The translations under genes and the position numbers were made by a program. The notes beneath the pieces are model-generated. The model was not told the origin of the DNA. It saw only the letters and a list, made by a program, of their open reading frames with translations, and did not search any database. Source: Nanobdellota archaeon (GTDB taxonomy: Archaea; Nanobdellota; Nanobdellia; Pacearchaeales; GW2011-AR1). From it: DNA of 48,283 bases. Of this stretch, positions 1,374 through 28,659 are shown piece after piece (within the stretch, counting starts at the first letter, position 1; every line of letters starts with the position of its first letter). The stretch lies in NCBI GenBank assembly GCA_030648285.1, contig JAUSIC010000003.1:1-48283 (forward strand), in the 5' to 3' direction.

Positions 1374-1826
1374 ATGAACAAGAAATTTTCAAAACATTGG
1401 AAGTCAAGCAGAAAACCAAGAAAACAAAGAAAGTACATAGCAAAAGCTCCGATTCATATAAAGAGAAAAATGCTTCATGTTCAGTTGTCAAAAGAATTAA
1501 GAAAAAAGTATGGAATAAGGAATATAACAATAAACAAAGGAGACACTGTAAAAGTCATGAAAGGGAAATTCAAGAAAAAACAAGGAAAAGTAACAGAAGT
1601 GAATACAAAAAGACTAAGAATATTTGTTGAAGGAGTTCAAGTAAGAAAACAGGATGGAAGCAAAGCAAATGTTTTCATAAGACCTGCGAACTTGCAAATT
1701 GTTGAATTAAATCTTGAGAAGAAAAGAAGCAAGATTGAAAGAATGAAAAAAGAAACCAAAGAAAAAGTAAAAGAAGAAAAAACAGAAAGCAAAGTTAAAG
1801 AAAAAATCACGGAGGAAAAGAAATAA
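1374..1826 (+). CDS. rpl24: 50S ribosomal protein uL24
   Basis: PRKQRKY..AP.H, KGDTVKVMKGKFK KOW motif; start moved to ATG 1374 (TAAAATG junction). Confidence 0.95.
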   Translation: MNKKFSKHWKSSRKPRKQRKYIAKAPIHIKRKMLHVQLSKELRKKYGIRNITINKGDTVKVMKGKFKKKQGKVTEVNTKRLRIFVEGVQVRKQDGSKANVFIRPANLQIVELNLEKKRSKIERMKKETKEKVKEEKTESKVKEKITEEKK

Positions 1827-1876
1827 TGACAGAACTAAAGTTCAGCACAAATAAAAATTCGGGAGAATTTTCATAA
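1826..1876 (+). mobile_element. Start-codon repeat element copy 1 (mini-ORF MTELKFSTNKNSGEFS*)
   Basis: TAATG overlaps at both ends; flanking 9-nt direct repeat ATAATGACA; 3' half matches copy 6a except 2 loop bases; hairpin AAAATTC-GGGA-GAATTTT. Mobility is inferred. Confidence 0.75.
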
Positions 1877-2517
1877 TGACACACTTGAAAAGACAGCAAT
1901 CACCAAAGAGCTGGCCTGTTGTAAGAAAAGGAACAAAATACTTAGTAAAACCCAAATCAAATGGAATTCCAATGCTTATAATTTTAAGAGACATGCTTGA
2001 AGTTGCACAGAACAGAAAAGAAGTAAAGAGGGCAATCAACATGAAAAATATTCTATTGAATCAAAAACAAGTGAAAGATGAAAAAAACAGCGCTGTTTTA
2101 TTTGATACAATAAGTGTTATTCCTACAAAGAAGAATTACAGGATAACTTTCTCTGAAAAAGGAAGATTTCAGCTTGATGAAATAAAAGAAAATGAAACAA
2201 ACAACAAGATAGCAAAAATAATCAACAAGAAAATGCTCAAAGGAAAGAAAACGCAAATTAATCTTAGCGATGGAAGAAATTTCTTGTCTGACTTGAAATG
2301 CAATGTAAATGATTCTGTATTAGTAAATCTAAAAGAAAAGAAAATAGAAAAATGCATTCCATTAAAAGAAAAATCAAACATCTTTGTATTTGAAGGAAAA
2401 CACGTTGGAAAACAAGGAATAATTGAAAAGATAATTCCAGAACAAAAAATGGTTGAAGCAGATGTTAAAGGAAATAAAATTCAGGTTTTAATTAAACAAC
2501 TTATGGTAATAGAATAA
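1876..2517 (+). CDS. rps4e: 30S ribosomal protein eS4
   Basis: HLKR..PKSWPV.RK, LRDML, QINLSDGRN, GKHVG motifs. Confidence 0.95.
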   Translation: MTHLKRQQSPKSWPVVRKGTKYLVKPKSNGIPMLIILRDMLEVAQNRKEVKRAINMKNILLNQKQVKDEKNSAVLFDTISVIPTKKNYRITFSEKGRFQLDEIKENETNNKIAKIINKKMLKGKKTQINLSDGRNFLSDLKCNVNDSVLVNLKEKKIEKCIPLKEKSNIFVFEGKHVGKQGIIEKIIPEQKMVEADVKGNKIQVLIKQLMVIE

Positions 2518-2518
2518 A

Positions 2519-3013
2519 ATGTCAAACATAATGAGAACAATAAAAATCGAGAAGGTTGTTTTAGGAATAGGTGCAACAGGAGACAATCTTGAGAAAGGAA
2601 TAAAACTTCTTGAATTAATAACAGAGAGAAAAGCTTCAAGAAGAACTTCTGCCAAGAGAATTCCTTCTTTAGGAGTAAGGCCTAAATTGCAAGTAGGAGC
2701 AATTGTTACAATAAGAAAAGAACCTGAGAAGATATTAAAGAGAATGCTTTCTGCAATTGATAATAGATTAAAAACAAAACAAATGAGCGAAAATAATTTT
2801 TCATTCGGAATAAAAGAATATATTGAAATTCCTGGAATGGAATTCCAAAGAGATATTGGAATCATGGGGCTTGACGTAACAGTAGTATTCAAAAGAACAG
2901 GAAGAAGAGTAAAATTAAGAAAAGTCAAAACAGGAAAAGTTCCAAAAAGACAAGTAATAACAAAAGAAGAAATAATTAAATTCATGGAGGACAACTTTCA
3001 GACAAAGTTCTAA
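2519..3013 (+). CDS. rpl5: 50S ribosomal protein uL5
   Basis: MR.IKIEKVV, NFSFGIKEYIEIPG, IGIMGLDV motifs. Confidence 0.97.
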   Translation: MSNIMRTIKIEKVVLGIGATGDNLEKGIKLLELITERKASRRTSAKRIPSLGVRPKLQVGAIVTIRKEPEKILKRMLSAIDNRLKTKQMSENNFSFGIKEYIEIPGMEFQRDIGIMGLDVTVVFKRTGRRVKLRKVKTGKVPKRQVITKEEIIKFMEDNFQTKF

Positions 3014-3014
3014 A

Positions 3015-3245
3015 ATGACAGCAAGCGATTGGAAAAAAGTATTAAAACAGATTGAAAACAAACCTGTAAAAAGGGACAAATTTACTAAACATAACAAGCC
3101 AAAGCAAAGAACAACAGGAATTGCAATGAAAAAATGCGAAAGATGTGGAAGATTTGGCGCTCATATCAGTTCATATGGATTAAACTTATGCCGACACTGC
3201 TTCAGGGAAACTGCAGTAGAAATCGGTTTCAAAAAATACAACTAA
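3015..3245 (+). CDS. rps14: 30S ribosomal protein uS14 (zinc-binding, N-terminally extended)
   Basis: CERCG...YGLNLCRHCFRE.A..IGFKKY. Confidence 0.96.
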   Translation: MTASDWKKVLKQIENKPVKRDKFTKHNKPKQRTTGIAMKKCERCGRFGAHISSYGLNLCRHCFRETAVEIGFKKYN

Positions 3246-3246
3246 A

Positions 3247-3303
3247 ATGTCAACTCCATTCCACAATTTCAAATTAAATAAAATGATGACAGCAAAATTG
3301 TAA
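3247..3303 (+). other. Bridging mini-ORF MSTPFHNFKLNKMMTAKL* between rps14 and rps8; possible degenerate element copy
   Basis: Open frame fills the whole gap; flanked by 9-nt direct repeat TAAAATGTC (3243-3251, 3301-3309); CCACAATTTCAAATT resembles core CCACAAATACAAAAT. Confidence 0.55.
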
Positions 3304-3304
3304 A

Positions 3305-3685
3305 ATGTCGCAAGATATTGTTTCGGACGCATTAAACATGATAAGAAATGCCAAAAGGGCAAGAAGAGATAGTGTGAAAATCAATAGAATATCAAATCTC
3401 TTAATCGAAGTTCTGAAAATAATGAAAGAGAAAGAAGCAATAAAGAAATACAAGATTGACAGCAAGGAAAAATCAATAGAAGTAACATTCGGAGATTTCA
3501 CAGAATGCAGAGCAATAAAGCCAAGATTCACTGCAGACAAAACTCAAATTGAAAAATACAGAAGAAGATATCTTCCTGCAAGAAACTTAGGAACAATAAT
3601 CATTTCAACAAATAAAGGATTAATGACTCACGAAGAGGCATTTGCAGAAGGAATTGGAGGAATCCTTGTTGCGTATTTTTATTAA
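3305..3685 (+). CDS. rps8: 30S ribosomal protein uS8
   Basis: D.VSDALNMIRNA, AIKPRF, YLPARNLG.IIISTNKGLMTH motifs. Confidence 0.97.
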   Translation: MSQDIVSDALNMIRNAKRARRDSVKINRISNLLIEVLKIMKEKEAIKKYKIDSKEKSIEVTFGDFTECRAIKPRFTADKTQIEKYRRRYLPARNLGTIIISTNKGLMTHEEAFAEGIGGILVAYFY

Positions 3686-3686
3686 A

Positions 3687-3944
3687 ATGAACGAAAAACC
3701 AAGAATAGAAAACAGAGTATCTGGATTAGGAAGAGCAGTAATATTTGGAGGAATTGCTATTCTTTATAGTAATCTTCTTTCTAATAATTTATTGGGGAAT
3801 AGTCTTAAAACTATTATGGATGCTGGATGTGCAATAGTAGCTACTGATGGTATCGGAGATTTAGTTACTGGACAAAATCATTATTTATCTTCAAGATTAA
3901 TTAAACATCTTAATGAAAGGAGAAATTTGAAATATTTAATATAA
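3687..3944 (+). CDS. Orphan small, probably membrane-associated protein (85 aa) inserted between rps8 and rpl6
   Basis: ATG 3687 one base after rps8 stop; stop one base before rpl6 ATG; Gly/Ala-rich hydrophobic segments; no family recognised. Confidence 0.7.
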   Translation: MNEKPRIENRVSGLGRAVIFGGIAILYSNLLSNNLLGNSLKTIMDAGCAIVATDGIGDLVTGQNHYLSSRLIKHLNERRNLKYLI

Positions 3945-3945
3945 C

Positions 3946-4488
3946 ATGAAAAAAGATTTATCGCAAACAATTGAAATTCCAGAAGGAGTGGAAGCGAACA
4001 TAGACGGAAGTTCAATCACTGTAAAGGGAAGCAAAGGAGAAAACAAAAGGACATTCAATGTCACAAATCTTTCTTTTGAGAAAAAAGGAAATAAAATAGT
4101 TGTTGGAAACAAAAAAGCAACAAAAAAAGACAAAAGAATGATGAACACAATTGCAGCACATGTCAAGAACATGATAAAAGGAGTTCAGGAAAAATTTGAA
4201 TACAAATTAAAAGTGTGCTTCAGCCATTTCCCAATCACAGTTGAATTAAAAGGAAATGAAGGAATAATAAAAAATTTCTTGGGAGAAAAAACACCAAGAA
4301 AAATGAAAATCAAAGAAGGTGCAGAAGTGAAAGTGGACAAAGATATAATCACAATAACCTCAACAGACAAGGAGATAGCAGGAAAAGTTGCAGCTGATTT
4401 TGAAAGAGCAACATGGATAAGAATGAGAGATAGAAGAATTTTCCAAGATGGCATTTTCATAACAAGTAAAGCAGGAGAAGATATCTGA
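3946..4488 (+). CDS. rpl6: 50S ribosomal protein uL6
   Basis: IEIPEGV, SHFPI, NFLGEK, RDRRIFQDGIFI motifs. Confidence 0.97.
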   Translation: MKKDLSQTIEIPEGVEANIDGSSITVKGSKGENKRTFNVTNLSFEKKGNKIVVGNKKATKKDKRMMNTIAAHVKNMIKGVQEKFEYKLKVCFSHFPITVELKGNEGIIKNFLGEKTPRKMKIKEGAEVKVDKDIITITSTDKEIAGKVAADFERATWIRMRDRRIFQDGIFITSKAGEDI

Positions 4489-4964
4489 TGTCTAAAGAAT
4501 TTTTGAAGCGTGGTTGGAAGAGATATTCAAGACTAGGAAGAAAAAGAAAAAAAATAAGAGTATGGAGAAGAGCAGCAGGAAGACAAAACAAGATGAGAGA
4601 AAGAAAAAGAGGATACACAAACATAGTCAGCATTGGTTATGGAAGAGAAAAATCAGGAAGAGGAAAAGTTCAAGACAAAGTTCCTGTAATGGTTCACAAT
4701 CTTAAAGAATTAGCAAAAGTAAAGAAAACTGAAATAGTAATAATCGCAAACGTTGGAAAAAAGAAAAAAATGGAAATAGCAAAAAAAGCAAATGAAATGA
4801 AATTAGATGTTCAAAACTTAAACGTAAAAAGATTTTTGAAGAAAGCAGAAAGAAAAGCGAAACAGATAGGAAATCTGAAAAACGGACAAGCCGTTTTAAA
4901 GAAAGAAGTTAAAAAGGAAGAAAAAAAGACAGAAGTAAAGACTAAGGAGGAAAAGAAAAAATGA
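4488..4964 (+). CDS. rpl32e: 50S ribosomal protein eL32 with Lys/Glu-rich tail
   Basis: WRRAAGRQNKMR, SIGYG, VHNLKEL, VGKKKK motifs; synteny. Confidence 0.92.
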   Translation: MSKEFLKRGWKRYSRLGRKRKKIRVWRRAAGRQNKMRERKRGYTNIVSIGYGREKSGRGKVQDKVPVMVHNLKELAKVKKTEIVIIANVGKKKKMEIAKKANEMKLDVQNLNVKRFLKKAERKAKQIGNLKNGQAVLKKEVKKEEKKTEVKTKEEKKK

Positions 4965-5365
4965 ACCTCACAAAGAAAAAAGAATTAGCAAAGAAGACTT
5001 TGAAAGTTGGAAAAGACAGAATTGCATTCGTTGATGCAAGATTAGATGAAATCAAAGAAGCAATAACAAGACAAGATATTCTTGATTTAGTGAACGAAGG
5101 AGCAATCATAGTAAAACCTGTAAAAGGAAGACTGAAAAAAACAAAGAAAAAATCAAGAAGTGTTGGAAACATAAGAAAGAAACCAAATGTGAGGAAGAAA
5201 ACCTATGTAATACTTGTAAGAAAACAAAGAAGTTATGTAGCAGAATTAAAAAGACAAAAAGAAATAACAAATGAAGAATTTAAAATGCTCAGAAGAAAAA
5301 TAAGAAACAAAGATTTCAGAAATAAAGCTCACTTAAGAGAATATAGCCAGGAGATGAAAAAATGA
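4961..5365 (+). CDS. rpl19e: 50S ribosomal protein eL19
   Basis: LKVGKDRI, EAITRQDI.DLV.EGAI, FRNKAHL motifs. Confidence 0.94.
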   Translation: MNLTKKKELAKKTLKVGKDRIAFVDARLDEIKEAITRQDILDLVNEGAIIVKPVKGRLKKTKKKSRSVGNIRKKPNVRKKTYVILVRKQRSYVAELKRQKEITNEEFKMLRRKIRNKDFRNKAHLREYSQEMKK

Positions 5366-5865
5366 CTAGAATGAGAAAAGTACCAAAGAGAAGAAGACAA
5401 GAAGGAAAAACAGATTATGCAAAAAGAATGAAATTGCTTAAAGGCAATTCTCCAAGAATAATCTTCAGAAGAACAAACAGATACATAATCAGCCAATATG
5501 TAACAAGCAAAGAAGCTCAAGACAAGATAGTTTTCGGAACAAGTTCAAAAGAATTATTGAAACATGGATGGCCGAAAGAAGCATCAGGAAGCTTGAAATC
5601 ATTAACAGCATCTTACTTTACAGGATTTTTAGCAGGAAAGAAAATACTAAAAGAAAAATTAAAAGCTCCAATTCTCGACTTTGGTATGAATCTTGTTCTT
5701 CACAAATCAAGAGAATTTGCATTCATAAAAGGACTTGTTGATTCTGGTGTTAAAATAAAAACAGAAGAAAAAGCCTTTCCTGAAGAATCAAGAATAAAAG
5801 GAGAACACATGAAGAATAAAGTTCCATTCGCAAAAATTAAAGAAAATATAGAAGGAGAAAAATAA
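5362..5865 (+). CDS. rpl18: 50S ribosomal protein uL18
   Basis: RRRQEGKTDY.KR.KLL, RRTNRYII.Q, SKEL..HGW, RIKGEH motifs. Confidence 0.96.
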   Translation: MTRMRKVPKRRRQEGKTDYAKRMKLLKGNSPRIIFRRTNRYIISQYVTSKEAQDKIVFGTSSKELLKHGWPKEASGSLKSLTASYFTGFLAGKKILKEKLKAPILDFGMNLVLHKSREFAFIKGLVDSGVKIKTEEKAFPEESRIKGEHMKNKVPFAKIKENIEGEK

Positions 5866-5866
5866 A

Positions 5867-5971
5867 ATGACAGAAATAGGAAATTTCACTGCAGACAAGA
5901 AGTCAGCCGTTCGTTCGTCAAAGCCGAGCGACAGCACAAATACAAAATCGGCATGGAGGTATTTTGCATAA
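5867..5971 (+). mobile_element. Start-codon repeat element copy 2 (mini-ORF MTEIGNFTADKKSAVRSSKPSDSTNTKSAWRYFA*)
   Basis: 5866-5942 identical (77 nt) to reverse complement of 28584-28660; 5940-5974 identical (35 nt) to 10126-10160; carries GGAGGT and ends in TAATG overlapping rps5. Mobility is inferred. Confidence 0.8.
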
Positions 5972-6732
5972 TGGCAGAAGAAAAAACAGAAGAACAAATC
6001 AGCCAGGAAATGCTGGAAAAAGAACTTGAAAAAGAAATAATAGAAAAACAAGTAGTAGAAAGAAGCAAAGAAGAAATGGAGAGGGATGACAAGATTGCTT
6101 CTTGGGTTCCAAAAACAAAACTTGGAAGAGAAGTAAAAGAAGGAAAAATCAAAAAAATAGATGAAATTCTTGATGCTAAGCAAAAAATCTTAGAAGAACA
6201 AATTGTTGAAAAATTGCTTAATCTAAAATCAGATTTAATTTCAATTGGGCAATCAAAAGGAAAATTCGGTGGAGGAAAAAGAAGAGCCTGGAGACAAACT
6301 CAAAGAAAAACAAAAGAAGGGAATGTTCCGACTTTCTCAACAATGGCTGTTGTAGGAGATGGAAATGGGCATGTAGGAGTAGGCATGGGAGAAGCAAAAG
6401 AAACTCTTCCTGCAAGAGACAAAGCAATAAGAAAAGCAAAAATAAATATTATAAAAATTATCAGAGGATGCTCAAGTTTTGATTGCAATTGTTCTGAACC
6501 TCACACAATTCCATTTCAAGTAGAAGGAAAATCAGGAAGTGTAAGAATAACCTTGATTCCAGCACCTCAAGGAACAGGATTAGTTATCGGAAATGAATTG
6601 AAAAAAGTATTAAAACTCGCAGGAATTAAAGATGTATATAGCAAGACATTTGGAAGCATTAGAACAACTTTTAATTTTGTTCAAGCTTGCATGGATGCCT
6701 TGAAGAAAACAAACCCAATTTATAGAAAATGA
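5971..6732 (+). CDS. rps5: 30S ribosomal protein uS5
   Basis: WVPKTKLG..VKEG, AVVGDGNGHVGVG, PAPQGTGL, LAGIKDV motifs; start set at 5971 because the MEVFCI prefix derives from the repeat. Confidence 0.96.
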   Translation: MAEEKTEEQISQEMLEKELEKEIIEKQVVERSKEEMERDDKIASWVPKTKLGREVKEGKIKKIDEILDAKQKILEEQIVEKLLNLKSDLISIGQSKGKFGGGKRRAWRQTQRKTKEGNVPTFSTMAVVGDGNGHVGVGMGEAKETLPARDKAIRKAKINIIKIIRGCSSFDCNCSEPHTIPFQVEGKSGSVRITLIPAPQGTGLVIGNELKKVLKLAGIKDVYSKTFGSIRTTFNFVQACMDALKKTNPIYRK

Positions 6733-7013
6733 AAAGTGCAACAGAGATTAAACAAGTAAGAAATTTAGAAGATTTAAGAGAAATACATGTAGATGATGCT
6801 GTTGAAGTTCCAACAATAGAAGCAAGAGGAATTGTTTATGGTTTTGATAAATTGTATGGATGGATGGACTTAATAGAAGATTGGGGTAATGGGTTATTAC
6901 AAGTGATGTATGTATTTAACAGAGATGAGATAATATTAAACAGCAGTACACTATTAAAAAAAGATGTTGAAAAATATGAAGCTAAATTAAGAGAAGTGGG
7001 GGTTATCAAATGA
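6729..7013 (+). CDS. Orphan acidic protein (94 aa) inserted between rps5 and rpl30
   Basis: ATGA overlaps with both neighbours; no family recognised. Confidence 0.72.
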   Translation: MKSATEIKQVRNLEDLREIHVDDAVEVPTIEARGIVYGFDKLYGWMDLIEDWGNGLLQVMYVFNRDEIILNSSTLLKKDVEKYEAKLREVGVIK

Positions 7014-7351
7014 TAGCAATAATAAGAATAACAGGGCAAATCAATCTTAGTGAGAACATAAAAGAAACTTTCCAAAGATTAAATCTAAAGAAAAAATATA
7101 CATGCATTGTTATTGAAGAAATGAATGATGTGCAAAAAGGAATGCTTAAAAAAATCAAAGACTTTGTTGCATACGGAGAATTAAACAAAGAAACTTATGA
7201 CAAGTTAGTTGAAAAAAGAGGACAAAAAGAAAAAAATATTTTCAGATTGCATCCTGCAAGAGGGGGAATCAATACAAAGAAAGCTTTTCCTAAAGGAGTT
7301 TTAGGAAATCACAAGCAAGAAATAAATAAATTAGTGGAGAGAATGCTCTAA
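7010..7351 (+). CDS. rpl30: 50S ribosomal protein uL30
   Basis: IAIIRI.G, GMLKKIKDFVAYGE, FRLHPARGG, INKLVERM motifs. Confidence 0.95.
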   Translation: MIAIIRITGQINLSENIKETFQRLNLKKKYTCIVIEEMNDVQKGMLKKIKDFVAYGELNKETYDKLVEKRGQKEKNIFRLHPARGGINTKKAFPKGVLGNHKQEINKLVERML

Positions 7352-7788: not shown

Positions 7789-7794
7789 AATAAA

Positions 7795-9243: not shown

Positions 9244-9273
9244 TTTTAAAAGACGATTTTAACTTAAACAAAA

Positions 9274-10058: not shown

Positions 10059-10079
10059 CCAAAATATAATTCATTTTAT

Positions 10080-10157
10080 ATGAAAAATAGGAAATTTTCC
10101 AATGTCCTCAGCATGAAACCTGCAGATACAAAATCGGCATGGAGGTATTTTGCATAA
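10080..10157 (+). mobile_element. Start-codon repeat element copy 3 (mini-ORF MKNRKFSNVLSMKPADTKSAWRYFA*)
   Basis: Shares AAATAGGAAATTT, CTGCAGA and the 35-nt 3' end with copy 2; terminal inverted repeat TATGAAAAATA / TATTTTGCATA (10 of 11); TAATG overlap with pfdA. Mobility is inferred. Confidence 0.8.
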
Positions 10158-10558
10158 TGGAAGAACCTAATGAACAAGAAAAACAAGAACTAATGATGAA
10201 ACTAGGATTTTTCGAACAGCAAATAAGACAAATTCAGCAACAAATTCAGGCAATTGAACAAGGAATTGTTGAAATGACTTCATTAAATTCAGGACTTGAA
10301 GAATTACAAGGCAAAAAAGATGCAGAAATTCTTGCTCCAATTGGAAGAGGAATTTATGCTAAAGCAAAGTTACTTTCAGAAGAATTGATTGTCAATGTTG
10401 GAAGCAATAATCTTGTGACAAAAGGAATTTCTGAAACAAGAAAACTCATTGAAAGCCAGATTCAAAAACTAGAAGAAATCAAAGTTGAAATGAATAATAA
10501 TCTTGAGAATTTAGGAAAAGAAATTGAAAGTGTAATGGGTGAAAAGCACGAACATTAA
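10157..10558 (+). CDS. pfdA: Prefoldin subunit alpha
   Basis: Two coiled coils around EILAPIGRGIY...LIVNVGSN beta-hairpins; start set at 10157. Confidence 0.93.
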   Translation: MEEPNEQEKQELMMKLGFFEQQIRQIQQQIQAIEQGIVEMTSLNSGLEELQGKKDAEILAPIGRGIYAKAKLLSEELIVNVGSNNLVTKGISETRKLIESQIQKLEEIKVEMNNNLENLGKEIESVMGEKHEH

Positions 10559-12313: not shown

Positions 12314-15100
12314 ATGGAAGAAATAAAAGAGAATGTTTTAACTCCTGATTTTTCTGGAGTATCAGATGAACTAGCAGACAGAAAGAAGAAACTTCTTGGT
12401 TTTTTGAAGAAAAAAGGACAATGGATTTATTATGCAATACTTGCATTCATAATTTTTATTGCAACTTTTGTAAGAACAAGAAATATCTCTAAATTAAAAG
12501 ACATAACAACAGGAACTTGGACATTAGGACCTGATTTAGACCCTTTCTTATTCCTGAGATGGGCAAAATATATAGCCCAGCATGGAAGCTTGTTTATTTT
12601 GGACAAGTTAAGGTCTGTTCCTTTGGCAGATATTTGTGTTGGTATACAGTGTAATCCTGTAAATACTTCAGGAGACATGAAACTACTATCTTACATGATA
12701 GTTTGGGTCTGGAAATTTTTATCTATTTTCAAAGAAGCAAGTGTAACTTATGCTGCTATAATCTTTCCTGTAATCATGTTCGTTTTGACAATAATCGCAT
12801 TTTTCCTTTTTGCAAGAAAAGTTTTCTACAAGATGGATGTAAAATCAAGAAATATCATTGCCTTGATATCAACTGCATTTTTCGCTGTAGTTCCTTCTTT
12901 ACTACCAAGAACAATCGCAGGAATACCTGAAAAAGAATCTGCTGCGTTCTTCTTCATTTTTCTCAGCTTTTACTTTTTCCTTGAAGCATTCACTTCTGAA
13001 AAATTAAGAGGAAAACTCATCTTTGGAATTCTTTCAGGAATAACTACAGGACTGCTTGCGCTCATATGGGGAGGAGCAGGGTTTGTCTTTCTCACTATAC
13101 CTGCTGCAGTTTTGTTCGCTTTTCTTCTTGGAAAAATTGATACTCATAAATTTTATTCTTATGGGCTATGGGTTTTAAGCTTTACATTAATCATGATTCC
13201 CTCTTCAACAAGATATGCCCTTGAAAATTTATTGACTTCAACTTCAACAGCTGTAACTTATCTATTATTTTTAGTTCTTGGAGTTGACATCCTCATATTC
13301 AAAAAGAAAATCTTTAAACTCAATGAAAAGATAAAAATAAAACTTCCACAACAGATTATTTCTCTGATTATTTCTTTTGTTTTAATAGCAATTTTAGGAA
13401 GCCTTGCTTTTGGAATATCTTTTATTCCGCATCAGGTTCAGGATGTCATAAGCCAGACAATACATCCATTAGACCAGACAAGATTCAGTGTTACTGTAGC
13501 AGAAAATAAACAGCCTTCTTTTGTCGGCGACTGGAAAGACAGTTTCGGGCCTGTTATATGGAATATTCCTTTATTTTTCTGGCTCTTTTTTATTGGTTCT
13601 ATTTTCTTATTTGCTAATCTTATAGAAAAATTAGAAAAGAAAGAAAGAATAATTTTGACAATAGCTTATACTATCTTCTTAGCAGGATTAATATTCAGCA
13701 AATATTCTCCTTCAGGAGTATTAAACGGAGAAAGCACCACGAGTTTAATTGTTTATTTTGGAGGAGTGCTGGTTTTCCTTATTAGTTTTGGATATTTCTA
13801 CATTAAGAGATATAAAGAAAGCAAATTATCTGCATTTAAGGAATTTGAATTTTCATATTTGATTTATTTTATTGTATTAACCATGGCAATAATGGCAGCA
13901 AGAGGAGCAGTCAGACTTATAATGGTTTTAGGAGCAATAAGTCCGCTTGCTATTGGCTTTTTAGTTTACAAAACTTCAAAAGACTATTTCAAGCAAAAAG
14001 ACAATGTTAAAAAATTCGCAATAGCAGTAATTGCATTAATCATAATAATCGCTGCTGTTTTTACTCTATGGACATATTATAGGGCTGACAGAGCTACTGG
14101 AGAGAATTTTGCTCCTGGCCCATACCAATGGCAATGGCAAAAAGCAATGGCTTGGGTGAGAGAAAATACATCAGTCAATGCTGTATTTGCTCATTGGTGG
14201 GATTATGGTTATTGGGTTCAAAGCATTGGAGAGAGAGCAACAATCGTAGATGGAGGTAATAGTGTAGGATATTGGAATCATTTAATGGGAAGGTATGTGC
14301 TTGCAGGAAATAATGAAAAAGATTCTTTAGATTTTCTTTATGCACATAATGCAACGCATTTACTCATAGACTCTTCTGAAATTGGAAAATATACTGCATT
14401 TTCCAGCATTGGCTCTGATGGAGATTATGATAAAATGTCTTGGATTCCTGAAATCCTGATGGATGAAAAACAAATAGTAGAGAAAAATAATGAAACCATG
14501 TATGTTTATATAATCCCCGGAGGAGGTACTGCAACAGACGAAGATATTCTCTGGAGTGAAAATGGAAAAGATATATTGCTTCCTGGAAGAAGCTCTTACC
14601 TAATTGGAGTAATCTTAAGCAAAAGTTCAGATAATAGGATATCCCAGCCTACTGGTGTTTTTGTATATAATAATCAACAATACAGGATTCCTTTCAGATA
14701 TGTTTATATCAAGGGAAATCTCAACGATTTCAATTCAGGATTAGATGCAGGAATATTCCTATACCCTAGGATAGAAACTACTTCAACAGGAATAAAGCAA
14801 AATGGGATAGGAGCAGGGTTTTATTTAAGCCCAAGAACAATTCACTCCAGCATTGCCCAGTTATATTTATTTGAGCAAAAATCAGATTATTTCAAAATAG
14901 CACATGTGGAAAGCAATGCTATTGTGAGTGATTTAAAAAGTAATGGATTTTATGAGGGAGAATTTTTATATTACCAAGGATTCCAAGGACCAATAAAGAT
15001 ATGGGCAATAACATATCCTTCAGATATAAAATTAAAGCAAGAATATTTAAATATAAATTATCCGAAAGAATTTCAAACAACAGATCCTGCTAGATACTAA
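12314..15100 (+). CDS. aglB: Oligosaccharyltransferase AglB (STT3 family)
   Basis: DLDP, RT.AG..EKE, TVAEN, WWDYG and DGG motifs; multi-TM N-terminal domain; ATG 12314 preferred over TTG 12296. Confidence 0.96.
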   Translation: MEEIKENVLTPDFSGVSDELADRKKKLLGFLKKKGQWIYYAILAFIIFIATFVRTRNISKLKDITTGTWTLGPDLDPFLFLRWAKYIAQHGSLFILDKLRSVPLADICVGIQCNPVNTSGDMKLLSYMIVWVWKFLSIFKEASVTYAAIIFPVIMFVLTIIAFFLFARKVFYKMDVKSRNIIALISTAFFAVVPSLLPRTIAGIPEKESAAFFFIFLSFYFFLEAFTSEKLRGKLIFGILSGITTGLLALIWGGAGFVFLTIPAAVLFAFLLGKIDTHKFYSYGLWVLSFTLIMIPSSTRYALENLLTSTSTAVTYLLFLVLGVDILIFKKKIFKLNEKIKIKLPQQIISLIISFVLIAILGSLAFGISFIPHQVQDVISQTIHPLDQTRFSVTVAENKQPSFVGDWKDSFGPVIWNIPLFFWLFFIGSIFLFANLIEKLEKKERIILTIAYTIFLAGLIFSKYSPSGVLNGESTTSLIVYFGGVLVFLISFGYFYIKRYKESKLSAFKEFEFSYLIYFIVLTMAIMAARGAVRLIMVLGAISPLAIGFLVYKTSKDYFKQKDNVKKFAIAVIALIIIIAAVFTLWTYYRADRATGENFAPGPYQWQWQKAMAWVRENTSVNAVFAHWWDYGYWVQSIGERATIVDGGNSVGYWNHLMGRYVLAGNNEKDSLDFLYAHNATHLLIDSSEIGKYTAFSSIGSDGDYDKMSWIPEILMDEKQIVEKNNETMYVYIIPGGGTATDEDILWSENGKDILLPGRSSYLIGVILSKSSDNRISQPTGVFVYNNQQYRIPFRYVYIKGNLNDFNSGLDAGIFLYPRIETTSTGIKQNGIGAGFYLSPRTIHSSIAQLYLFEQKSDYFKIAHVESNAIVSDLKSNGFYEGEFLYYQGFQGPIKIWAITYPSDIKLKQEYLNINYPKEFQTTDPARY

Positions 15101-15101
15101 A

Positions 15102-15158
15102 ATGAGCAAACAGGAAATTTGCCACAAATACAAAATAGATAAGAGGTATTTTGCATAA
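15102..15158 (+). mobile_element. Start-codon repeat element copy 4 (mini-ORF MSKQEICHKYKIDKRYFA*)
   Basis: Core motifs AGGAAATTT, CACAAATACAAAAT and GAGGTATTTTGCATAATG; begins 1 nt after aglB stop and ends in TAATG overlap. Mobility is inferred. Confidence 0.8.
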
Positions 15159-16150
15159 TGGAAATTATACTGGTAATTCCCCTTCTTCTAAGCTTTTTAA
15201 TGGCTTTATTTTTAATGCCGTTTTGGATTAAAAAAGCTAAAGAGATTGGGCTTGTATGGGAAGATATGAACAAGCCAGAACATCCAAAGAATGTTGCTGG
15301 TTCTGGAGGGGTTGCAGTATTTTTAGCATTTATACTAGGAGTTTTAACATATATTGCCATAAAGACATTTTACTTCAAATCAAAAGATAATCTAATAGAA
15401 ATTTTTGCTTCTTTGAGTGTTATCTTGGTAATTTCATTTATTGGAATTTTAGATGATTTGTTAGGATGGAGAAAAGGAGGATTATCTGCAAAATCAAGAC
15501 TGGCTTTGTTATTGTTTGCATCTATTCCTTTGATTGTAATAAATGCAGGAGAATCAAATATATTTGGAAATGTAGAATTAGGATTGATATATCCTCTGGT
15601 TTTTATCCCTCTCGGAATAATTGGAGCATCAGCAACCTTTAATTTCTTAGCAGGTTATAATGGATTGGAAACAAGCCAGGGAATATTGATATTATCCAGT
15701 CTTTCATTAATAACATTTACAACAGGAGAAAAATGGCTTTCAATAATTATTTTATGCATGGTTGCTTCTTTAATTCCTTTTTATCTTTTTAATAAATATC
15801 CTGCAAAAGTTTTTCCAGGGAATATAATTACCTATTCTGTAGGAGGTTTAATTGCAATGATAGCTATACTTGGAAATTTGGAAAAAATTGCTATCTTCTT
15901 TTTCATCCCCTATATCTTAGAAACAATCCTGAAAGTTAGAGGAAAATTAAAAAAACAAAGTTTTGCAAGGGTAAATCCTGACGGAAGTTTGGAAGTGCCT
16001 TATGAAAAAATTTATGGGTTGGAACATTTGGCAATATTTATTTTAAAAAAGGTAAAAAAGAAGGTTTATGAGAAAGATGTTGTTTATCTCATAAATGGGT
16101 TTCAGATATTTATAATAATATTAGGAATGATATTATTCTGGAGACCTTAA
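15158..16150 (+). CDS. MraY/GPT (AglH-like) polyprenyl-phosphate HexNAc-1-phosphate transferase
   Basis: DMNKP, GILDD, NFLAGYNGLE, NKYPAKVFPG motifs; adjacent to aglB. Confidence 0.9.
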   Translation: MEIILVIPLLLSFLMALFLMPFWIKKAKEIGLVWEDMNKPEHPKNVAGSGGVAVFLAFILGVLTYIAIKTFYFKSKDNLIEIFASLSVILVISFIGILDDLLGWRKGGLSAKSRLALLLFASIPLIVINAGESNIFGNVELGLIYPLVFIPLGIIGASATFNFLAGYNGLETSQGILILSSLSLITFTTGEKWLSIIILCMVASLIPFYLFNKYPAKVFPGNIITYSVGGLIAMIAILGNLEKIAIFFFIPYILETILKVRGKLKKQSFARVNPDGSLEVPYEKIYGLEHLAIFILKKVKKKVYEKDVVYLINGFQIFIIILGMILFWRP

Positions 16151-16152
16151 TA

Positions 16153-16356
16153 ATGAGCAAACAAGAAATTAAATTCGCGACCTCACTAATATGGATTAAA
16201 CGTGAAATCGCTCACCACAAATACAAAATCGACAGGAGTGAATGGAAACGAACAGGAAGTTCATTTCACGCTCTTTTTCAAAAAGTGAATGACAAGAAAG
16301 AAACATTATTTTTAGGAAAAAATAACGAAGAAAAATATCGGAGGTATTTTGCATAA
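16153..16356 (+). mobile_element. Start-codon repeat element copy 5, expanded form (67-codon ORF MSKQEI...HKYKID...RYFA*)
   Basis: Same three core blocks as copy 4 separated by hairpin-rich inserts; TAATGA at both ends. Mobility is inferred. Confidence 0.78.
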
Positions 16357-17297
16357 TGAAAATTAGAAAACTTTTGCCTATAATAGGAATTTTAATCTTT
16401 CTGTACATTTTAATAAGATTAGATATAAGAAAAGTCTTATTAGAAATCAGCCAGGCAAAAGTAAATTTTCTGTTAATTGCTGTATTATTCATTTTCATTT
16501 CCTTTTTAACAGAAACATTAAAATGGTTTTCAATAGCAAGAGTGCAAAAAACTAATATTCCTTTTTTTAAGGCAGTAAAAGTAAATCTAATCAGTTCTTT
16601 TTATGGATTCATAACTCCTTCAAAAGTGGGGGGGGTAATACGTGCAAAATATTTGAAAGAATACAACAACAATGTCGGAAAAGGAGTTGGAAATTTTATA
16701 TTGGACAAGGTTTTGGATGTATGTTCCTTAGTGTTTTTAGCAATATTATTTTCTTTTGTGTTTAGAGAGTTTCTTCCAATTAATTTTTTCTATTACTCAA
16801 TTGCCCTGCTTTCATTGATGATAATATTTCTATTCATCTTTTTTGATATGAGGAAGAGCAGATTTTTTCTAAAGATAGTCTATAAAAGATTCATTCCAAA
16901 GAGATGGAAAGAAAGAGCAAGAAAAGAATTTTATTCTTTCTATGAAGATATGCCTAAAAAAAGATATTTTTTCCTATTTTTTCTCTTAAACATTCTTAAT
17001 TGGATTGTCTTATATTCTATAAGCTTTTTTATTGGAAAATCTATTGGAATAAACCTCTCTTTCTTTTATTTCTTAGCAATTCTTCCAATAGCTACTTTAG
17101 TTGCACAGATACCAATAACAATCTCTGGATTAGGTACAAGAGAGGCAATCTTAATCACTTTATTCGGATTAGTGGGAATTGATAAAACAAAAGTATTTTC
17201 AATGTCCATGATAAATCTGTTCATAGGAGCTGTTATTCCTTCTGCAGTAGGTTGGATTTTAAGTCTGAAAAACAATAAAAATTATAAACAAACCTAA
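16356..17297 (+). CDS. Lysylphosphatidylglycerol synthase TM-domain / flippase-like membrane protein (UPF0104)
   Basis: KW, TPSKVGG..RA, DKVLD, PITISGLGTRE motifs. Confidence 0.88.
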   Translation: MKIRKLLPIIGILIFLYILIRLDIRKVLLEISQAKVNFLLIAVLFIFISFLTETLKWFSIARVQKTNIPFFKAVKVNLISSFYGFITPSKVGGVIRAKYLKEYNNNVGKGVGNFILDKVLDVCSLVFLAILFSFVFREFLPINFFYYSIALLSLMIIFLFIFFDMRKSRFFLKIVYKRFIPKRWKERARKEFYSFYEDMPKKRYFFLFFLLNILNWIVLYSISFFIGKSIGINLSFFYFLAILPIATLVAQIPITISGLGTREAILITLFGLVGIDKTKVFSMSMINLFIGAVIPSAVGWILSLKNNKNYKQT

Positions 17298-19677: not shown

Positions 19678-19684
19678 TTTATTC

Positions 19685-22634: not shown

Positions 22635-22676
22635 AATCATAAAAATCTTTATTAATCCTCTAATTGATAACCCCCT

Positions 22677-25513: not shown

Positions 25514-26409
25514 TAAAAATAATCATGATAGACGCATTCAAAGAAGAATATCTAAACTATGCCCCTTATCTTTCTTCATTGACAAAAAAATATCAATGGG
25601 GAGAATTAAAAATGCCAATTGGACATTGGGGAGGAGTAGAAGTATTCTTTCATGGAAAATCTGACAAGCTTGCTCTTTTTCAAAAAAAAGAGAAATCTTC
25701 ATTAAAATGGACTAAAAAATTTGCTTGGCTCGAGAAATTATTCGGAAGAACAGCTATTGATGCCTTGATAAATTTTCCAAGGTTTATCTTAGGTTATGAA
25801 TTATTCAAAACAGGAAAAGTTCCAATTAACCAATTAGGGAAATTTGATTTTTGTGTTAAAGAACCATTATACTCTTCAAAAGAGATAGAATTTGAATATA
25901 TTGGAGATTTAGACAATGTAGCACATAGATATGGGACAAAAAGCCAGCGGACAATCGACACAATAAAAAAAGTTGATGAAAAAATATCCAAAGAGGATTT
26001 TGATATAATATTTTCAGACCATGGAATGATTGATGTTAAAAAAACAATCAATGTTCCTTTAAGTGAGAATTGCTTTATTGATTCAGACATGGCAAGATAC
26101 TGGGGAAATGAAGAGGAATTAAATGAGATAAAAAAGAGACTTCCAATGAAAGATGGAAAGATAATTGACTGGAAAGATAAATCTTATGGAGATCTGATTT
26201 TTATTGTCAAGCCAGGAATTTTAATCTTGCCTAATTATTGGCAAGGAAAACAACCTGCAAAGGCTATGCATGGTTATTATGGAGATAATAAAGAACTAAA
26301 TGGGATTTACATAATAAAAAAACAAGGAAACAGGAAAAATTTGGGGGTAGAAGAATTGCATGAGATATTGAATAAAATGAAGGAGGAAGAGAAAATTGGA
26401 AGAAAATAA
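25510..26409 (+). CDS. Alkaline phosphatase superfamily / nucleotide pyrophosphatase-phosphodiesterase-like protein
   Basis: IDA, LD..AH.YG, SDHGM, MHGY metal-ligand motifs. Confidence 0.85.
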   Translation: MIKIIMIDAFKEEYLNYAPYLSSLTKKYQWGELKMPIGHWGGVEVFFHGKSDKLALFQKKEKSSLKWTKKFAWLEKLFGRTAIDALINFPRFILGYELFKTGKVPINQLGKFDFCVKEPLYSSKEIEFEYIGDLDNVAHRYGTKSQRTIDTIKKVDEKISKEDFDIIFSDHGMIDVKKTINVPLSENCFIDSDMARYWGNEEELNEIKKRLPMKDGKIIDWKDKSYGDLIFIVKPGILILPNYWQGKQPAKAMHGYYGDNKELNGIYIIKKQGNRKNLGVEELHEILNKMKEEEKIGRK

Positions 26410-26932
26410 ACTAGAAGACACTTATGAAGATAAAAATCTTTTAACAAGATTTTACTTCAGAACAAAGGTTTGGTTAGCAGTAAGAACTGCAAAATTAAAA
26501 AAAGAAGATATTATATTAGACTTTGGATGCGGAGGAGGGTGGCTGGAAAAGAAACTCAAGGGTTATCAAATATATGGATATGATATTAATCCTAAGAAAA
26601 CATTTATCAAAGATTATAAAACAATCAAACCCAATAAGATTTTTGTTCTGGACGTATTTGAGCATATTCCAACAGAAGAAATCAAAAAAATAGTTGAGAA
26701 TTTTAAAAAATTAAATAATAATTTTATATTAATTGTTTCTGTTCCTACTGAAAATTTAGCTTCAAGAAAAATAAGAAAATTCGTAGGCAAGCCAGAAGTT
26801 CCAAAAGAACACATCACAAAATATCAAGAGATAACTAAAATTTTAAAAGATAATTTTATTATAAAAAAGAGAATTAATTTTTTCACAATTAGCCATATTT
26901 TAATATTTAGTTATAATTCGCTTGATATATGA
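26396..26932 (+). CDS. Class I SAM-dependent methyltransferase
   Basis: ILDFGCGGG, GYD, DVFEHI motifs; TTG start preceded by GGAGG. Confidence 0.88.
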   Translation: MEENKLEDTYEDKNLLTRFYFRTKVWLAVRTAKLKKEDIILDFGCGGGWLEKKLKGYQIYGYDINPKKTFIKDYKTIKPNKIFVLDVFEHIPTEEIKKIVENFKKLNNNFILIVSVPTENLASRKIRKFVGKPEVPKEHITKYQEITKILKDNFIIKKRINFFTISHILIFSYNSLDI

Positions 26933-28511
26933 CTAAAATTGGTTGATTGTCCTGTTGATAACCCTGAACAGGAAACCATGTATCATTATGAACCATTGGA
27001 TAATTTACCATCCAATCATCATGTTTCTGAAATATTGACAAAATTAAAAACTTTGGTTTTTCTTTATTTACAAATTCATCAAAGCTTGTTTCATTGAAAT
27101 AATCCCCGCTATGACTTTCTGGATTTTTAAATCCGTCATCAAATGTTCCTGTTCTTCTTTCGGAATAATAAGAAATCTGTGGGAAGCTCTGGGTTATAAT
27201 TGTATCATCAATATTTGAATGCTGTTTTATCCATTCTCCTGCAAGTTTAAGTTCATAATAAGAACTCTTTTTACTTTCTGTTAGCTGATAACCCCAAACT
27301 AAATTAGGTATAAGACTAGCAACTAGAATAATTAAAATCAAAATAGCAATAACTTTTTTATTTATCTTCAGATGCTTTTCTACTAGTTTTCCTAATTCAA
27401 AAAGAGGAATCGCAGCAATCATAAACAAGAAGGGATGCTGCATTAAGGTATATCTCTGCTGAGCAGTCGGATCCATTTGCATATAGCCTAATACCAAAAG
27501 AGGAAGAGCTATCCAGAGAAAAACAAATAACTTGCTTTGAATTGTCTTGTTTTTGAATATCTTGTCAAATCCTAAAAAAAGATCTGCAAAGAAATAAACA
27601 GCACCGATTATAAACAATATGAATATCGGAAGAGTCAGATTATATGGCAAATCCAAGAAGTAAATAGGCCAGTTTACAACAGAAGTTCTCGCTACTGGTG
27701 CAGCTGCTGTCTTGATAATACCCAAGTCATAAGAGAGTATATCTATCAGAGGATTTCCAAAATGCTTTGCATAAACAATAAAATGAGGCACTAAGGCTAA
27801 GGCAAATATTAAAAGAGTAATCCACAAAGATTTATTTTTTAGAAACTTAAACTTTTCTTTAATAAAAGCAAGTACGAAAAACATTGGAAGAACCATTAGG
27901 TTCTGCATTCTGATTAAAACAGATACAGCAAGGAAAAGTCCAGACAAGTACAGATATTTTTTTCCCTTTTCCATTTCATATCCTTTCCAAAAAAGAAACA
28001 AAGTCAAAAGAATAAAAAAAGTAGAAGGTATATCTGTCATTGTTCTTCCTGTGAAGAAAAAAGCAACCCATGAAAAAGTAAGTCCTATTGCTGTGAATAA
28101 GGCATATTTTTTATTGAACATGTCCCTGACTAAAAAATAAGAAACTGCGATAATTCCTGTTGAAAACAAAACTTCTGAAAATCTTATTCCAACTTCCCCT
28201 AATCCAATCTTAAAAAATAAGGCTCCAAATAATGGCCACAAAGCTCCTCTTCTGTAATACCACAAATCAGTCATATTACCAACACCTGCCCATAATTTAG
28301 CAGTAGACATGTATTCTGCACCATCAAACCACATTGCCTGGTCTTTTGTTATAAAAAAGACTACAACCCTAATAACAAATGCTAAAATTAAAACTCCAAT
28401 AAATGCCTTATCATAATTATCTTGAACCCAAGAAAATAGTTTTGTTTTTATTGTCTTTTTTCTTTCTTCAATAATTTTTTCTTCTGATTTAATTGCTATT
28501 ATTTCTTCCAT
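26907..28511 (-). CDS. GT-C fold membrane glycosyltransferase (PMT/ArnT-like)
   Basis: WFDGAEY loop after TM1, TDIP, RY, many TM helices, C-terminal GEWIKQH domain. Confidence 0.85.
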   Translation of the reverse strand: MEEIIAIKSEEKIIEERKKTIKTKLFSWVQDNYDKAFIGVLILAFVIRVVVFFITKDQAMWFDGAEYMSTAKLWAGVGNMTDLWYYRRGALWPLFGALFFKIGLGEVGIRFSEVLFSTGIIAVSYFLVRDMFNKKYALFTAIGLTFSWVAFFFTGRTMTDIPSTFFILLTLFLFWKGYEMEKGKKYLYLSGLFLAVSVLIRMQNLMVLPMFFVLAFIKEKFKFLKNKSLWITLLIFALALVPHFIVYAKHFGNPLIDILSYDLGIIKTAAAPVARTSVVNWPIYFLDLPYNLTLPIFILFIIGAVYFFADLFLGFDKIFKNKTIQSKLFVFLWIALPLLVLGYMQMDPTAQQRYTLMQHPFLFMIAAIPLFELGKLVEKHLKINKKVIAILILIILVASLIPNLVWGYQLTESKKSSYYELKLAGEWIKQHSNIDDTIITQSFPQISYYSERRTGTFDDGFKNPESHSGDYFNETSFDEFVNKEKPKFLILSIFQKHDDWMVNYPMVHNDTWFPVQGYQQDNQPILVIYQANYN

Positions 28512-28561
28512 TACATAAAATCTCCTATTTTATGTTTGTGGCAAATCTCCTGTTTGCTCAT
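28511..28561 (-). mobile_element. Start-codon repeat element copy 6b (mini-ORF MSKQEICHKHKIGDFM*)
   Basis: 5' part nearly identical to copy 4; perfect 9-bp hairpin ACATAAAAT-AGGAG-ATTTTATGT; TAATG at both ends. Mobility is inferred. Confidence 0.8.
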
Positions 28562-28659
28562 TATGAAAATTCTTCTGAATTTTTATTTGTGCTGTCGCTC
28601 GGCTTTGACGAACGAACGGCTGACTTCTTGTCTGCAGTGAAATTTCCTATTTCTGTCAT
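28561..28659 (-). mobile_element. Start-codon repeat element copy 6a (mini-ORF MTEIGNFTADKKSAVRSSKPSDSTNKNSEEFS*)
   Basis: 5' part identical to copy 2, 3' end like copy 1; TAATG-coupled to copy 6b. Mobility is inferred. Confidence 0.8.

Follow-up and report, generated by a model that had tools for sequence, protein, structure and literature searches.

A family of short mobile repeats that sit on the start codons of unrelated genes was identified in the genome of a Nanobdellota archaeon (GenBank assembly GCA_030648285.1), with seven copies in contig JAUSIC010000003.1, the whole 48,283 nt of which are referred to below as the window. The elements are 53-206 nt long; a standard copy begins with an ATG at the place where the start codon of the following gene would be expected, continues as a short open reading frame (mini-ORF) and ends in TAATG, the ATG of which opens the gene behind it. 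We infer from the sequence that translation of the mini-ORF hands ribosomes on to the host gene by termination-reinitiation, with the help of a Shine-Dalgarno sequence of its own, and consider this account of a start-codon mobile element probable. The assembly, denoted G000, comprises 621,814 bases in 25 contigs, with about 31% G+C and a completeness of 84.68%; the window is its contig C5. The relatives recognized through SecY are named Candidatus Woesearchaeota, Pacearchaeota and Nanoarchaeota archaeon, so that the DPANN origin presumed in the preliminary description is correct. The genomes compared are incomplete metagenome bins and, as the copies share descent, copy counts do not represent independent trials.

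The seven copies in the window are the following (coordinates include the terminal ATG):

1826..1878, + strand: copy 1, 53 nt, 16-codon mini-ORF, 3' hairpin of the subtype ATAAAAATTC/GAATTTTCAT; leads from the L24 stop (TAATG overlap) to the S4e start
5867..5973, + strand: copy 2, 107 nt, canonical apart from an added 45-nt internal module, 34-codon mini-ORF; leads from the L18 stop to the S5 start
10080..10159, + strand: copy 3, 80 nt, 25-codon mini-ORF, at the start of the prefoldin gene; a TATA-like hexamer begins 29 nt upstream of the first ATG
15102..15160, + strand: copy 4, canonical 59-nt form; leads from the STT3/AglB stop to the GT4 start
15106-15110/15118-15122, + strand: 5' hairpin of copy 4
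15128-15136/15148-15156, + strand: 3' arms of copy 4
15143-15147, + strand: GAGGT of copy 4
15156-15160, + strand: TAATG of copy 4
16153..16358, + strand: copy 5, 206-nt long form with extra hairpin modules, 67-codon mini-ORF; leads from the GT4 stop to the LPG_synthase_TM-like start
28559..28659, - strand: copy 6, 101 nt, leading member of a tandem pair that shares one ATG, the last of copy 6 and the first of copy 7
28509..28561, - strand: copy 7, 53 nt, 3' hairpin of the subtype ACATAAAAT/ATTTTATGT with AGGAG in the loop (z = -2.74); upstream of the PMT_2 (GT-C) gene 26907-28511

The preliminary description of this DNA had reported seven related segments that start with ATGA and end in TAATG directly before unrelated genes, and all seven were recovered: the terminal ATGs open ORFs of 213, 253, 133, 330, 313 and 534 codons, with copy 6 running into copy 7, so that the tandem pair forms a chain of 32 codons, TAATG, 16 codons, TAATG and the 534-codon host. 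The gene names assigned earlier are backed by Pfam (L24 followed by S4e, L18 followed by S5, prefoldin, STT3/AglB followed by GT4, LPG_synthase_TM-like and PMT_2), and the family does sit inside an essential ribosomal operon, the L24-S4e and L18-S5 junctions being occupied. The sequence blocks said to be shared by distant copies are real as well, with exact BLAST matches of 76 and 34 nt that reach the reported 77 and 35 nt when an identical flanking base is included. The mini-ORFs of copies 1-7 translate, in order, as MTELKFSTNKNSGEFS, MTEIGNFTADKKSAVRSSKPSDSTNTKSAWRYFA, MKNRKFSNVLSMKPADTKSAWRYFA, MSKQEICHKYKIDKRYFA, the 67-residue form, MTEIGNFTADKKSAVRSSKPSDSTNKNSEEFS and MSKQEICHKHKIGDFM, each up to its stop codon, and the two other frames of copy 5 contain 4 and 6 stops. 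The claim that every copy is stop-free is true of all seven copies in the window but not of the whole genome, where 5 of 42 mini-ORFs are broken.

Genome-wide, the combination of BLAST, an nhmmer profile and a covariance model places about 45 loci of the family in G000, the covariance model giving 40 matches at E <= 0.001. The 18-mer GAGGTATTTTGCATAATG (with at most 2 mismatches) occurs 36 times in G000, compared with 0 occurrences of the pattern read backward and 0-1 in each of 40 related genomes; the family is far beyond chance. The copies are 90-100% alike and are built of modules, namely a 5' block (ATGACAGAAATAGGAAATTTCAG, ATGACAGAACTAACGTTCAG, ATGAGCAAACAGGAAATTTGC or ATGAAAAATAGGAAATTTTCC) followed by CACAAATACAAAAT, a variable linker and GAGGTATTTTGCATAATG. 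Two alternative 3' ends, ...ATAAAAATTC-RGGA-GAATTTTCATAATG and ...ACATAAAAT-AGGAG-ATTTTATGTAATG, are also found, and long forms contain extra hairpin modules between the 5' block and the core or within the 3' loop. These internal modules (window 5889-5933, G000 C14:10212-10321 and C6:13477-13594, among others) are small hairpin units common to several copies and, on inspection, are flanked by short direct repeats (CA...CA, GGAG...GGAG). By our own count, the 45-nt module of copies 2 and 6 has 56% G+C, compared with 31% for the genome, and the module carried is the sole difference between the orthologous S5-start copies of G000 and of the related locus L051.

An ORF of at least 50 codons is opened by 31 of the 36 copies with an intact canonical 3' block, against a background of 24% for TAATG sites (binomial P = 5e-15); of the other five, two lead into a tandem or partial second copy, one runs off the end of its contig and two have no long ORF. 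All copies are in sense orientation to the gene behind them. The copies are thus not scattered randomly relative to start codons; genome-wide, they sit at gene starts. To this extent, the earlier proposal that the element targets start codons holds, although ATG-specific insertion followed by selection fits the same distribution equally well. The host genes encode nine ribosomal proteins (S4e, S5, L10e/L16, S13, S3Ae, L1, S3, S27a and S9), the RuBisCO large subunit, proteasome alpha, SecD, SecF, RNA polymerase subunit L, the PolD small subunit, prefoldin, a PilB-like ATPase, Nre, a helicase, a methyltransferase, a metallo-beta-lactamase-fold protein, glycosyltransferases and the products of orphan ORFs. 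In the RuBisCO large-subunit gene (G000 C6:13592-14884), which has both Pfam domains, the start codon is occupied by an element of the long type.

Several other identities were considered and rejected for these segments. A known RNA family was discarded, with no match to Rfam 15 in the whole window at gathering scores and none in 15000-16500 at E <= 1, and a C/D-box sRNA was dismissed by eye, with no box D or C' motifs present. A real small protein was rejected too: the 67-aa and 34-aa peptides belong to no Pfam family, and the peptide sequence differs between subtypes. Six homologues of these peptides were found, all of them short (42-82 aa) and presumed to be mini-ORFs of the same family.

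The element is mobile, as presence/absence polymorphism is observed at the same junctions. The exact composite pattern was found in 17 metagenome contigs that are syntenic with G000 at 65-95% DNA identity and contain 23 profile matches, often at junctions other than those in G000; among species-representative genomes, there was no match to this pattern, and two pattern scans detected no copy in viral contigs. Six pairs of filled and empty sites are clean (L numbers denote individual loci):

L5/S14 junction: filled in L049, empty in G000
L32e/L19e junction: filled in L050 and L051, empty in G000
L19e/L18 junction: filled in L044, empty in G000
L18/S5 junction: filled in G000, empty in L046
L24/S4e junction: filled in G000, empty in L050
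junction on C7: filled in L043, empty in G000

In all six, the filled site reads ATG-element-ATG and the empty site has a single start codon (TTG in L046). An ATG on both sides fits a 3-bp duplication and, equally, an element that brings its own ATG; some copies have longer flanking repeats. Furthermore, contigs of runs X2 and X3 span positions 1788 to 1888 and 10070 to 10172 of the window without the element, and a contig of run X6 similarly spans 5847 to 5970. The L24/S4e junction is empty in all 13 of the other-genus loci printed. At L18/S5, the L18 stop leads straight into the S5 start, with no element, in the other-genus loci with a readable junction; 12 such loci were compared, and in some of them the S5 start was merely extrapolated, which leaves the junction unreadable there. 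Empty alleles of the orthologous L24-S4e and L18-S5 junctions are therefore available in relatives, and the copies are not fixed at the same genes. The preliminary description of a dispersed, non-autonomous family is borne out by this polymorphism and by the roughly 45 loci in G000.

Beyond the close relatives, the family is patchily distributed. Among 80 SecY loci of other species, the element profile matched L089 twice and L096 weakly (E = 0.12), and the covariance model gave, across 60 other genera of the taxonomic family, 1-2 matches in 3 genomes and none in 57, compared with 40 in G000. The genome behind L089, denoted G041, harbors about 10 copies of one subtype, including those at the S5, S14 and S3 starts. 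The S5 start is filled by three variants (in G000, L051 and G041) and is empty elsewhere, which implies that favoured sites are used repeatedly or that copies are gained, lost and turned over. A single copy in G000 (C15:48781) no longer precedes a gene, having lost its terminal ATG and acquired an early stop.

Two further features of these operons resemble the element in layout. In three loci from other genera (L061, L065 and L090), a shared spacer of 50-90 nt about 0.9 kb upstream of secY reads as a degenerate mini-ORF element (ATGA..AAGCAAATCAAAGATTTTCA...AGGAG..ATG) that is single-copy there. The sequence GCAAATCAAAGATTTTCA from these spacers was examined as the possible mark of another repeat family and was rejected, with one exact match each in genomes G042 and G043 and the rest at control level; the spacer could represent an ancient relative of the family that has become fixed. 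In the ribosomal operon of the window, two orphan ORFs on the + strand, 6729-7013 (94 aa) and 3687-3944 (85 aa), lie exactly at the L30 and L6 start codons, respectively. Neither matches a Pfam family, each is present once in the genome, and the ORF at 6729-7013 has ATGA overlaps at both ends. The X2/X3 contigs, which stem from related organisms, join 6731 directly to 7008 and, with 28 other letters in between, 3685 to 3969; because these contigs bypass them, the orphan ORFs are lineage-specific start-codon insertions, with a geometry like that of the repeat and a sequence unrelated to it.

The first ATG of the element occupies the place of a native start codon. Among 495 long ORFs representing the native genes of G000, TATA-like hexamers begin at -27 relative to the ATG in 99 cases, at -28 in 77 and at -29 in 110, as compared with 4, 9, 16 and 6 cases at -25, -26, -30 and -31, respectively, and GGAG 3-14 nt before the ATG is rare; G000 appears to use mostly leaderless transcripts. 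Contexts were counted for the 42 copies with a defined 5' ATG. In 21 of these, an upstream ORF of at least 60 codons ends between 9 nt before the first ATG and the TGA of its ATGA, the TGA of ATGA being used in 5 and a TAATG overlap in 3 of these operon-internal copies. A TATA-like hexamer at -27 to -30, located in host DNA, precedes another 11 copies. The remaining 10 are of other kinds, including four with a TATA-like box around -40 to -44 and one that immediately follows a tRNA-like 3' end. The assignment of the first ATG to the native start-codon place follows from the match of the upstream-stop and TATA contexts to those of native genes, and the coupling to an upstream stop or TATA-like box noted earlier for the window is seen genome-wide in these 21 and 11 copies, respectively. 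The N-terminus of the host protein is placed by orthologue alignments at the terminal ATG of the element. The copy after the tRNA-like sequence (G000 C12:10130-10223) starts, on inspection, a few bases past the apparent 3' end (...GGGTTCGAATCCCGATCGGCGCA), and may be co-transcribed with the tRNA. Host genes that start with ATG[AG]CAG are enriched, with 6 of about 50 in G000 and the loci L046 and L049, compared with 12 of 495 other genes (P = 0.0013); these starts echo the ATGACAG of the element itself, yet three of the six carry an element of the ATGAGC type.

The frame of the mini-ORF is maintained in most of the family. In 42 of 52 unique standard copies, that is, those with ATG at both ends, frame 0 is free of stops up to the TAATG, and frame 1 always contains stops. 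Thirteen length classes, all 2 mod 3 (53, 56, 59, 62, 80, 101, 107, 110, 113, 119, 122, 161 and 206 nt), result from the combination of 5' blocks (20, 21 or 23 nt), linkers (7 or 8 nt) and inserts (45-147 nt); the exceptional lengths of 60, 63, 121 and 165 nt belong mostly to copies with internal stops. Even the 67-codon forms are open, with 4-6 stops in each other frame. The chain from the first ATG is intact in 37 of 42 copies, through -1 or -4 overlaps and, in one copy, a +2 gap; it is intact in 21/21 operon-internal copies, including two tandem or compound ones, versus 16/21 others (Fisher two-sided P = 0.048). The peptides differ completely between subtypes, and it would seem to be the frame that matters, not the peptide product.

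Under the proposed mechanism, the old start would still be served after insertion, either by the terminating ribosomes of the upstream gene or through leaderless initiation at the transcript's 5' end, and would now open a short stop-free frame that ends in TAATG on the new ATG of the host. Without a stop in the insert, ribosomes would cross the host start out of frame, and an early stop would leave a gap of 50-200 nt before it. If the insert is an ORF in its own right and overlaps its neighbours on either side, it would keep the chain and release the ribosomes on the new start codon. The Shine-Dalgarno sequence of the element could retain the ribosome that has just terminated or attract another, and the A after the first ATG would preserve the ATGA overlap with upstream genes (5 cases). 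In this manner, neither the expression of the host gene nor the coupling of the operon would be lost on insertion. In reporter experiments in an archaeon and a bacterium, coupling requires the overlap and is nearly abolished by a gap of about 20 nt, according to the portions of the two reports used here (PMC10666635; PMC6728339).

The structural case rests on covariation in the 3' helix, in which ATACAAAAT pairs with ATTTTGCAT. In 47 distinct short copies from G000, metagenome contigs and G041, 88.7% of the cells are paired, a figure that falls to 35-62% if the pairing partner is displaced by 1-3 columns, and compensatory changes are found in 4 of 9 pairs (C-G/A-U/U-A; U-A/C-G; A-U/U-A; U-A/A-U/C-G). 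None of 500 shuffles reached the observed value for four of five measures, and 40 of 500 did for the number of further pair types; an A.C mismatch is conserved in 46 of the 47 copies. The two 3' arms lie between 4 and over 100 nt apart, a range that indicates an intramolecular hairpin, formed by RNA or by single-stranded DNA, and not a double-stranded operator. The 3' loop always contains GGAG. The 16S rRNA tail reads ...GGATCACCTCCT, to which GGAGGT is complementary, so that GGAGGT represents a full Shine-Dalgarno core. The MAFFT alignment used leaves the 5' hairpins out of register, and the covariation accordingly covers the 3' helix. The 5' hairpin is weak; of the 30 distinct 5' blocks, 24 form it, and we counted at least 8 different stems (GAAAT/ATTTC, GAAAC/GTTTC, GAAC/GTTC, GACG/CGTC, GCAAA/TTTGC, CAAAC/GTTTG, GAAAA/TTTTC and CTGAAAAT/ATTTTCAG). 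Reading of the ends revealed no clear terminal inverted repeats, apart from an imperfect likeness of about 9 nt that some 5' ends (ATGAAAAAT) bear to ATTTTGCAT in reverse complement.

The Shine-Dalgarno sequence suggests another explanation, under which the element is only a portable ribosome-binding site: GGAGG(T) and the ATG would matter, initiation would be de novo, and the mini-ORF would be a passive by-product of recent common origin. This is compatible with the complementarity of GGAGGT to the 16S tail and its location in the hairpin loop of all three 3' subtypes, with the near-identity of the copies and with the five broken mini-ORF copies that still precede intact genes. A passive mini-ORF does not, however, readily account for thirteen length classes that all keep the frame despite being put together from different blocks, linkers and modules, for 67-codon forms that stay open while the other frames carry 4-6 stops, or for a chain intact in every one of the 21 operon-internal copies; an untranslated gap of 50-200 nt is also expected to break coupling, judging from the available part of PMC10666635. 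We therefore regard a ribosome-binding site alone as unlikely. The suggestion made earlier, that the relay avoids polarity, is indirectly supported by the lengths of 2 mod 3 and the unbroken operon-internal chains, but its necessity is not, as GGAGG(T) could suffice.

Several observations weigh against the relay by a mobile start-codon element. Because the element has its own Shine-Dalgarno sequence, host expression is explicable without a relay, with de novo initiation potentially sufficient; the spacing of this sequence from the ATG, 10-12 nt, is inside the native range, at its long end. Broken mini-ORFs are tolerated in five copies, three of which have a stop at codon 4, although these copies are not all independent, as two precede paralogous genes. 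The Fisher test is borderline, and the close likeness of the copies means that the open frame is partly inherited and not independently selected. Folding of single sequences gives z from -0.7 to -3.1 with weak energies and P mostly 0.02-0.2 for the 5' blocks, which is unconvincing alone and leaves the structural argument to covariation, and 6 of the 30 distinct 5' blocks do not fold. Finally, no transposase with ends matching the element was found in G000 or beside the Y1 transposase genes of G041.

The hairpins and the range of hosts raise the question of a co-opted regulatory leader, similar to the Neisseria REP2 repeats, in which the hairpins would be bound by a protein or RNA and the family would mark a regulon. 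Growth genes are indeed abundant among the hosts, among them those for nine ribosomal proteins, an RNA polymerase subunit, proteasome alpha, SecD/SecF, the PolD small subunit and RuBisCO, the S5, S14 and S3 starts are occupied in different genera, and REP2 repeats precede co-regulated genes, as described in the portion of PMC3184786 consulted. The hosts also include, however, glycosyltransferases, a methyltransferase, a helicase and orphan ORFs; occupancy varies between relatives as close as 80-95% DNA identity, the element is missing from most genera of the taxonomic family, and a spacing of the 3' arms between 4 and more than 100 nt argues against a fixed double-stranded operator. On balance, a regulatory leader seems improbable.

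How the start-codon element moves was addressed by searching for candidate enzymes. In G000 (84.7% complete), no match to Y1, DDE_Tnp_1 (PF01609) or rve (PF00665) was obtained, and the best score to the TnpB zinc-ribbon model, 20.2 bits, is below the cut-off. One tyrosine recombinase is present, which we take to be XerA-like. G000 also has a locus (C16:46340-49945, L057) with a 334-aa reverse transcriptase (RVT_1, E = 5.5e-19) and an 85-nt repeat pair (2342-2426 and 2676-2760 of the locus) that is 86% identical, the second repeat lying at the 3' end of a 205-aa gene. This locus is recognized as a diversity-generating retroelement because the repeats lie beside a reverse transcriptase and differ mostly at T positions of the + strand, which are A in the coding strand.

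With no transposase found in G000, spread without a dedicated enzyme has to be considered, by template switching or microhomology recombination between borders that both mimic a gene start (A-rich, ATG, purine). The direct repeats flanking the copies vary (ATG, ATGA, ATGACA, ATGACAG, ATGGCAGAAC), the internal modules are likewise flanked by short repeats on inspection, and the enrichment of ATG[AG]CAG hosts would be expected under such a process; in half of these hosts, however, an ATGAGC... type is resident, so that the extended homology mismatches the copy in place. Moreover, a burst to about 45 near-identical copies with conserved terminal hairpins looks more enzyme-driven, and the incompleteness of G000 limits what the missing transposase can tell. 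Spread without a dedicated enzyme is somewhat unlikely.

Alternatively, a hairpin element could be mobilised in trans by a transposase of the IS200/IS605 type (HUH Y1), with single-stranded insertion 3' of ATG and a cleavage site of its own at AATG. Hairpins at both ends, the lack of clear terminal inverted repeats, the left flank (A)ATG and the right end TAATG would suit such an enzyme, and G041, with its roughly 10 copies, encodes two IS200-like Y1 transposases (C19:11522-11884 and C31:9493-9840; L212 and L213). These two genes were examined as movers and found no support: the sequences beside them are unrelated, G+C-richer hairpins, and the best match of the model there, E = 0.012 at 19.8 bits, is not significant. 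Neither G000 nor four other element-bearing genomes encode a Y1 transposase. A 3-nt target is, in addition, unusually short for the IS200/IS605 family. Mobilisation by Y1 is accordingly given little credence here.

Taken further, the start-codon element with its relay could represent a new class of selfish DNA that integrates at start codons with duplication of the ATG, neutralises itself by translational hand-over and thereby colonises essential, closely coupled operons as well as leaderless promoters in highly compact DPANN genomes. This extension is tentative, being possible and less secure than the relay itself; the element might also be co-opted at times as a portable translation start. 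If the relay is true, it provides a third mode in which selfish DNA can be harmless inside genes, acting at the level of translation, beside introns at the level of RNA and inteins at the level of protein. It would also explain how about 70 copies per Mb are accommodated in a genome of 0.6-0.7 Mb with almost no non-coding DNA, even in the ribosomal operon. The 53-62 nt element offers a compact natural system for testing termination-reinitiation and, in archaea, the change from leaderless initiation to that led by a Shine-Dalgarno sequence, and filled and empty sites can be used as a strain-tracking marker in DPANN populations. The precise ATG...ATG junctions raise the question of which machinery recognises a start codon in DNA.

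Among known mobile repeats, hairpin elements derived from IS200/IS605 and REP sequences (repetitive extragenic palindromes) are short, form hairpins, lack clear inverted termini and are inserted strand-specifically beside a short fixed sequence. To our knowledge, they are neither start-codon specific nor translated. The present element shares with them the hairpins near both ends, and a cognate Y1 transposase was not found in G000. In contrast to classical MITEs (miniature transposable elements with inverted repeats), which are shortened DDE insertion sequences, it has no related DDE transposase in G000, as judged by PF01609 and PF00665.

In its translational geometry, the element resembles natural overlapping gene pairs, with a -1 overlap (TAATG/TGATG) downstream and a -4 (ATGA) or -1 overlap or a few nt upstream, and natural coupled pairs often have a Shine-Dalgarno sequence before the restart codon, as the element does, according to the parts of PMC6728339 and PMC10666635 that were available. 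The upstream partner in such pairs is a real gene, as far as these sources go, whereas here it is a mobile filler of 16-67 codons whose peptide is not conserved. The Escherichia coli mRNAs with a 5'-terminal AUG, in the part of PMC4965119 considered, have the layout of the promoter-proximal copies (AUG, Shine-Dalgarno, gene AUG), but are neither repeats nor mobile. The Rickettsia palindromic elements and other repeats whose ORFs are fused in frame to host genes are likewise small, mobile and tolerated in a coding context by virtue of an open frame; they join the host protein, in the excerpt of PMC3184786 used, whereas the present mini-ORF is separate and leaves the host protein unchanged.

The closest precedent is that of the Neisseria REP2 (CREN) repeats and the IR sequences of Borrelia plasmids, which were set beside the present element by their description in Delihas 2011. 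In the consulted portion of PMC3184786, these are multi-copy repeats without terminal inverted repeats, with two stem-loops and with origin and spread unexplained, which lie directly upstream of ORFs and carry their own promoter, ribosome-binding site and the ATG of the downstream gene. The element described here also brings a ribosome-binding site and the downstream ATG, has two stem-loops and lacks clear inverted termini. REP2 and IR, as portrayed there, are bacterial and have their own promoter, whereas the present element is archaeal and uses a host promoter or the ribosomes of the upstream gene; the relay mini-ORF, the stop/start overlap and the location on the previous start codon inside operons are not described for REP2/IR in that portion. 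The preliminary statement that no described family of this kind was known stands insofar as the literature searched contains no description of a start-codon-specific repeat with a relay ORF, and is qualified by REP2/IR as a partial precedent (PMC3184786, in the portion consulted). A census of MITEs lists one Woesearchaeal genome with 105 MITEs per Mb, and the available text does not contain the term "start codon", although its supplementary tables may list the family (PMC11602168). We conclude that the present family is a real and unusual variant of small dispersed repeats, and that there is a real chance that, if the relay is confirmed, it constitutes a class of its own.

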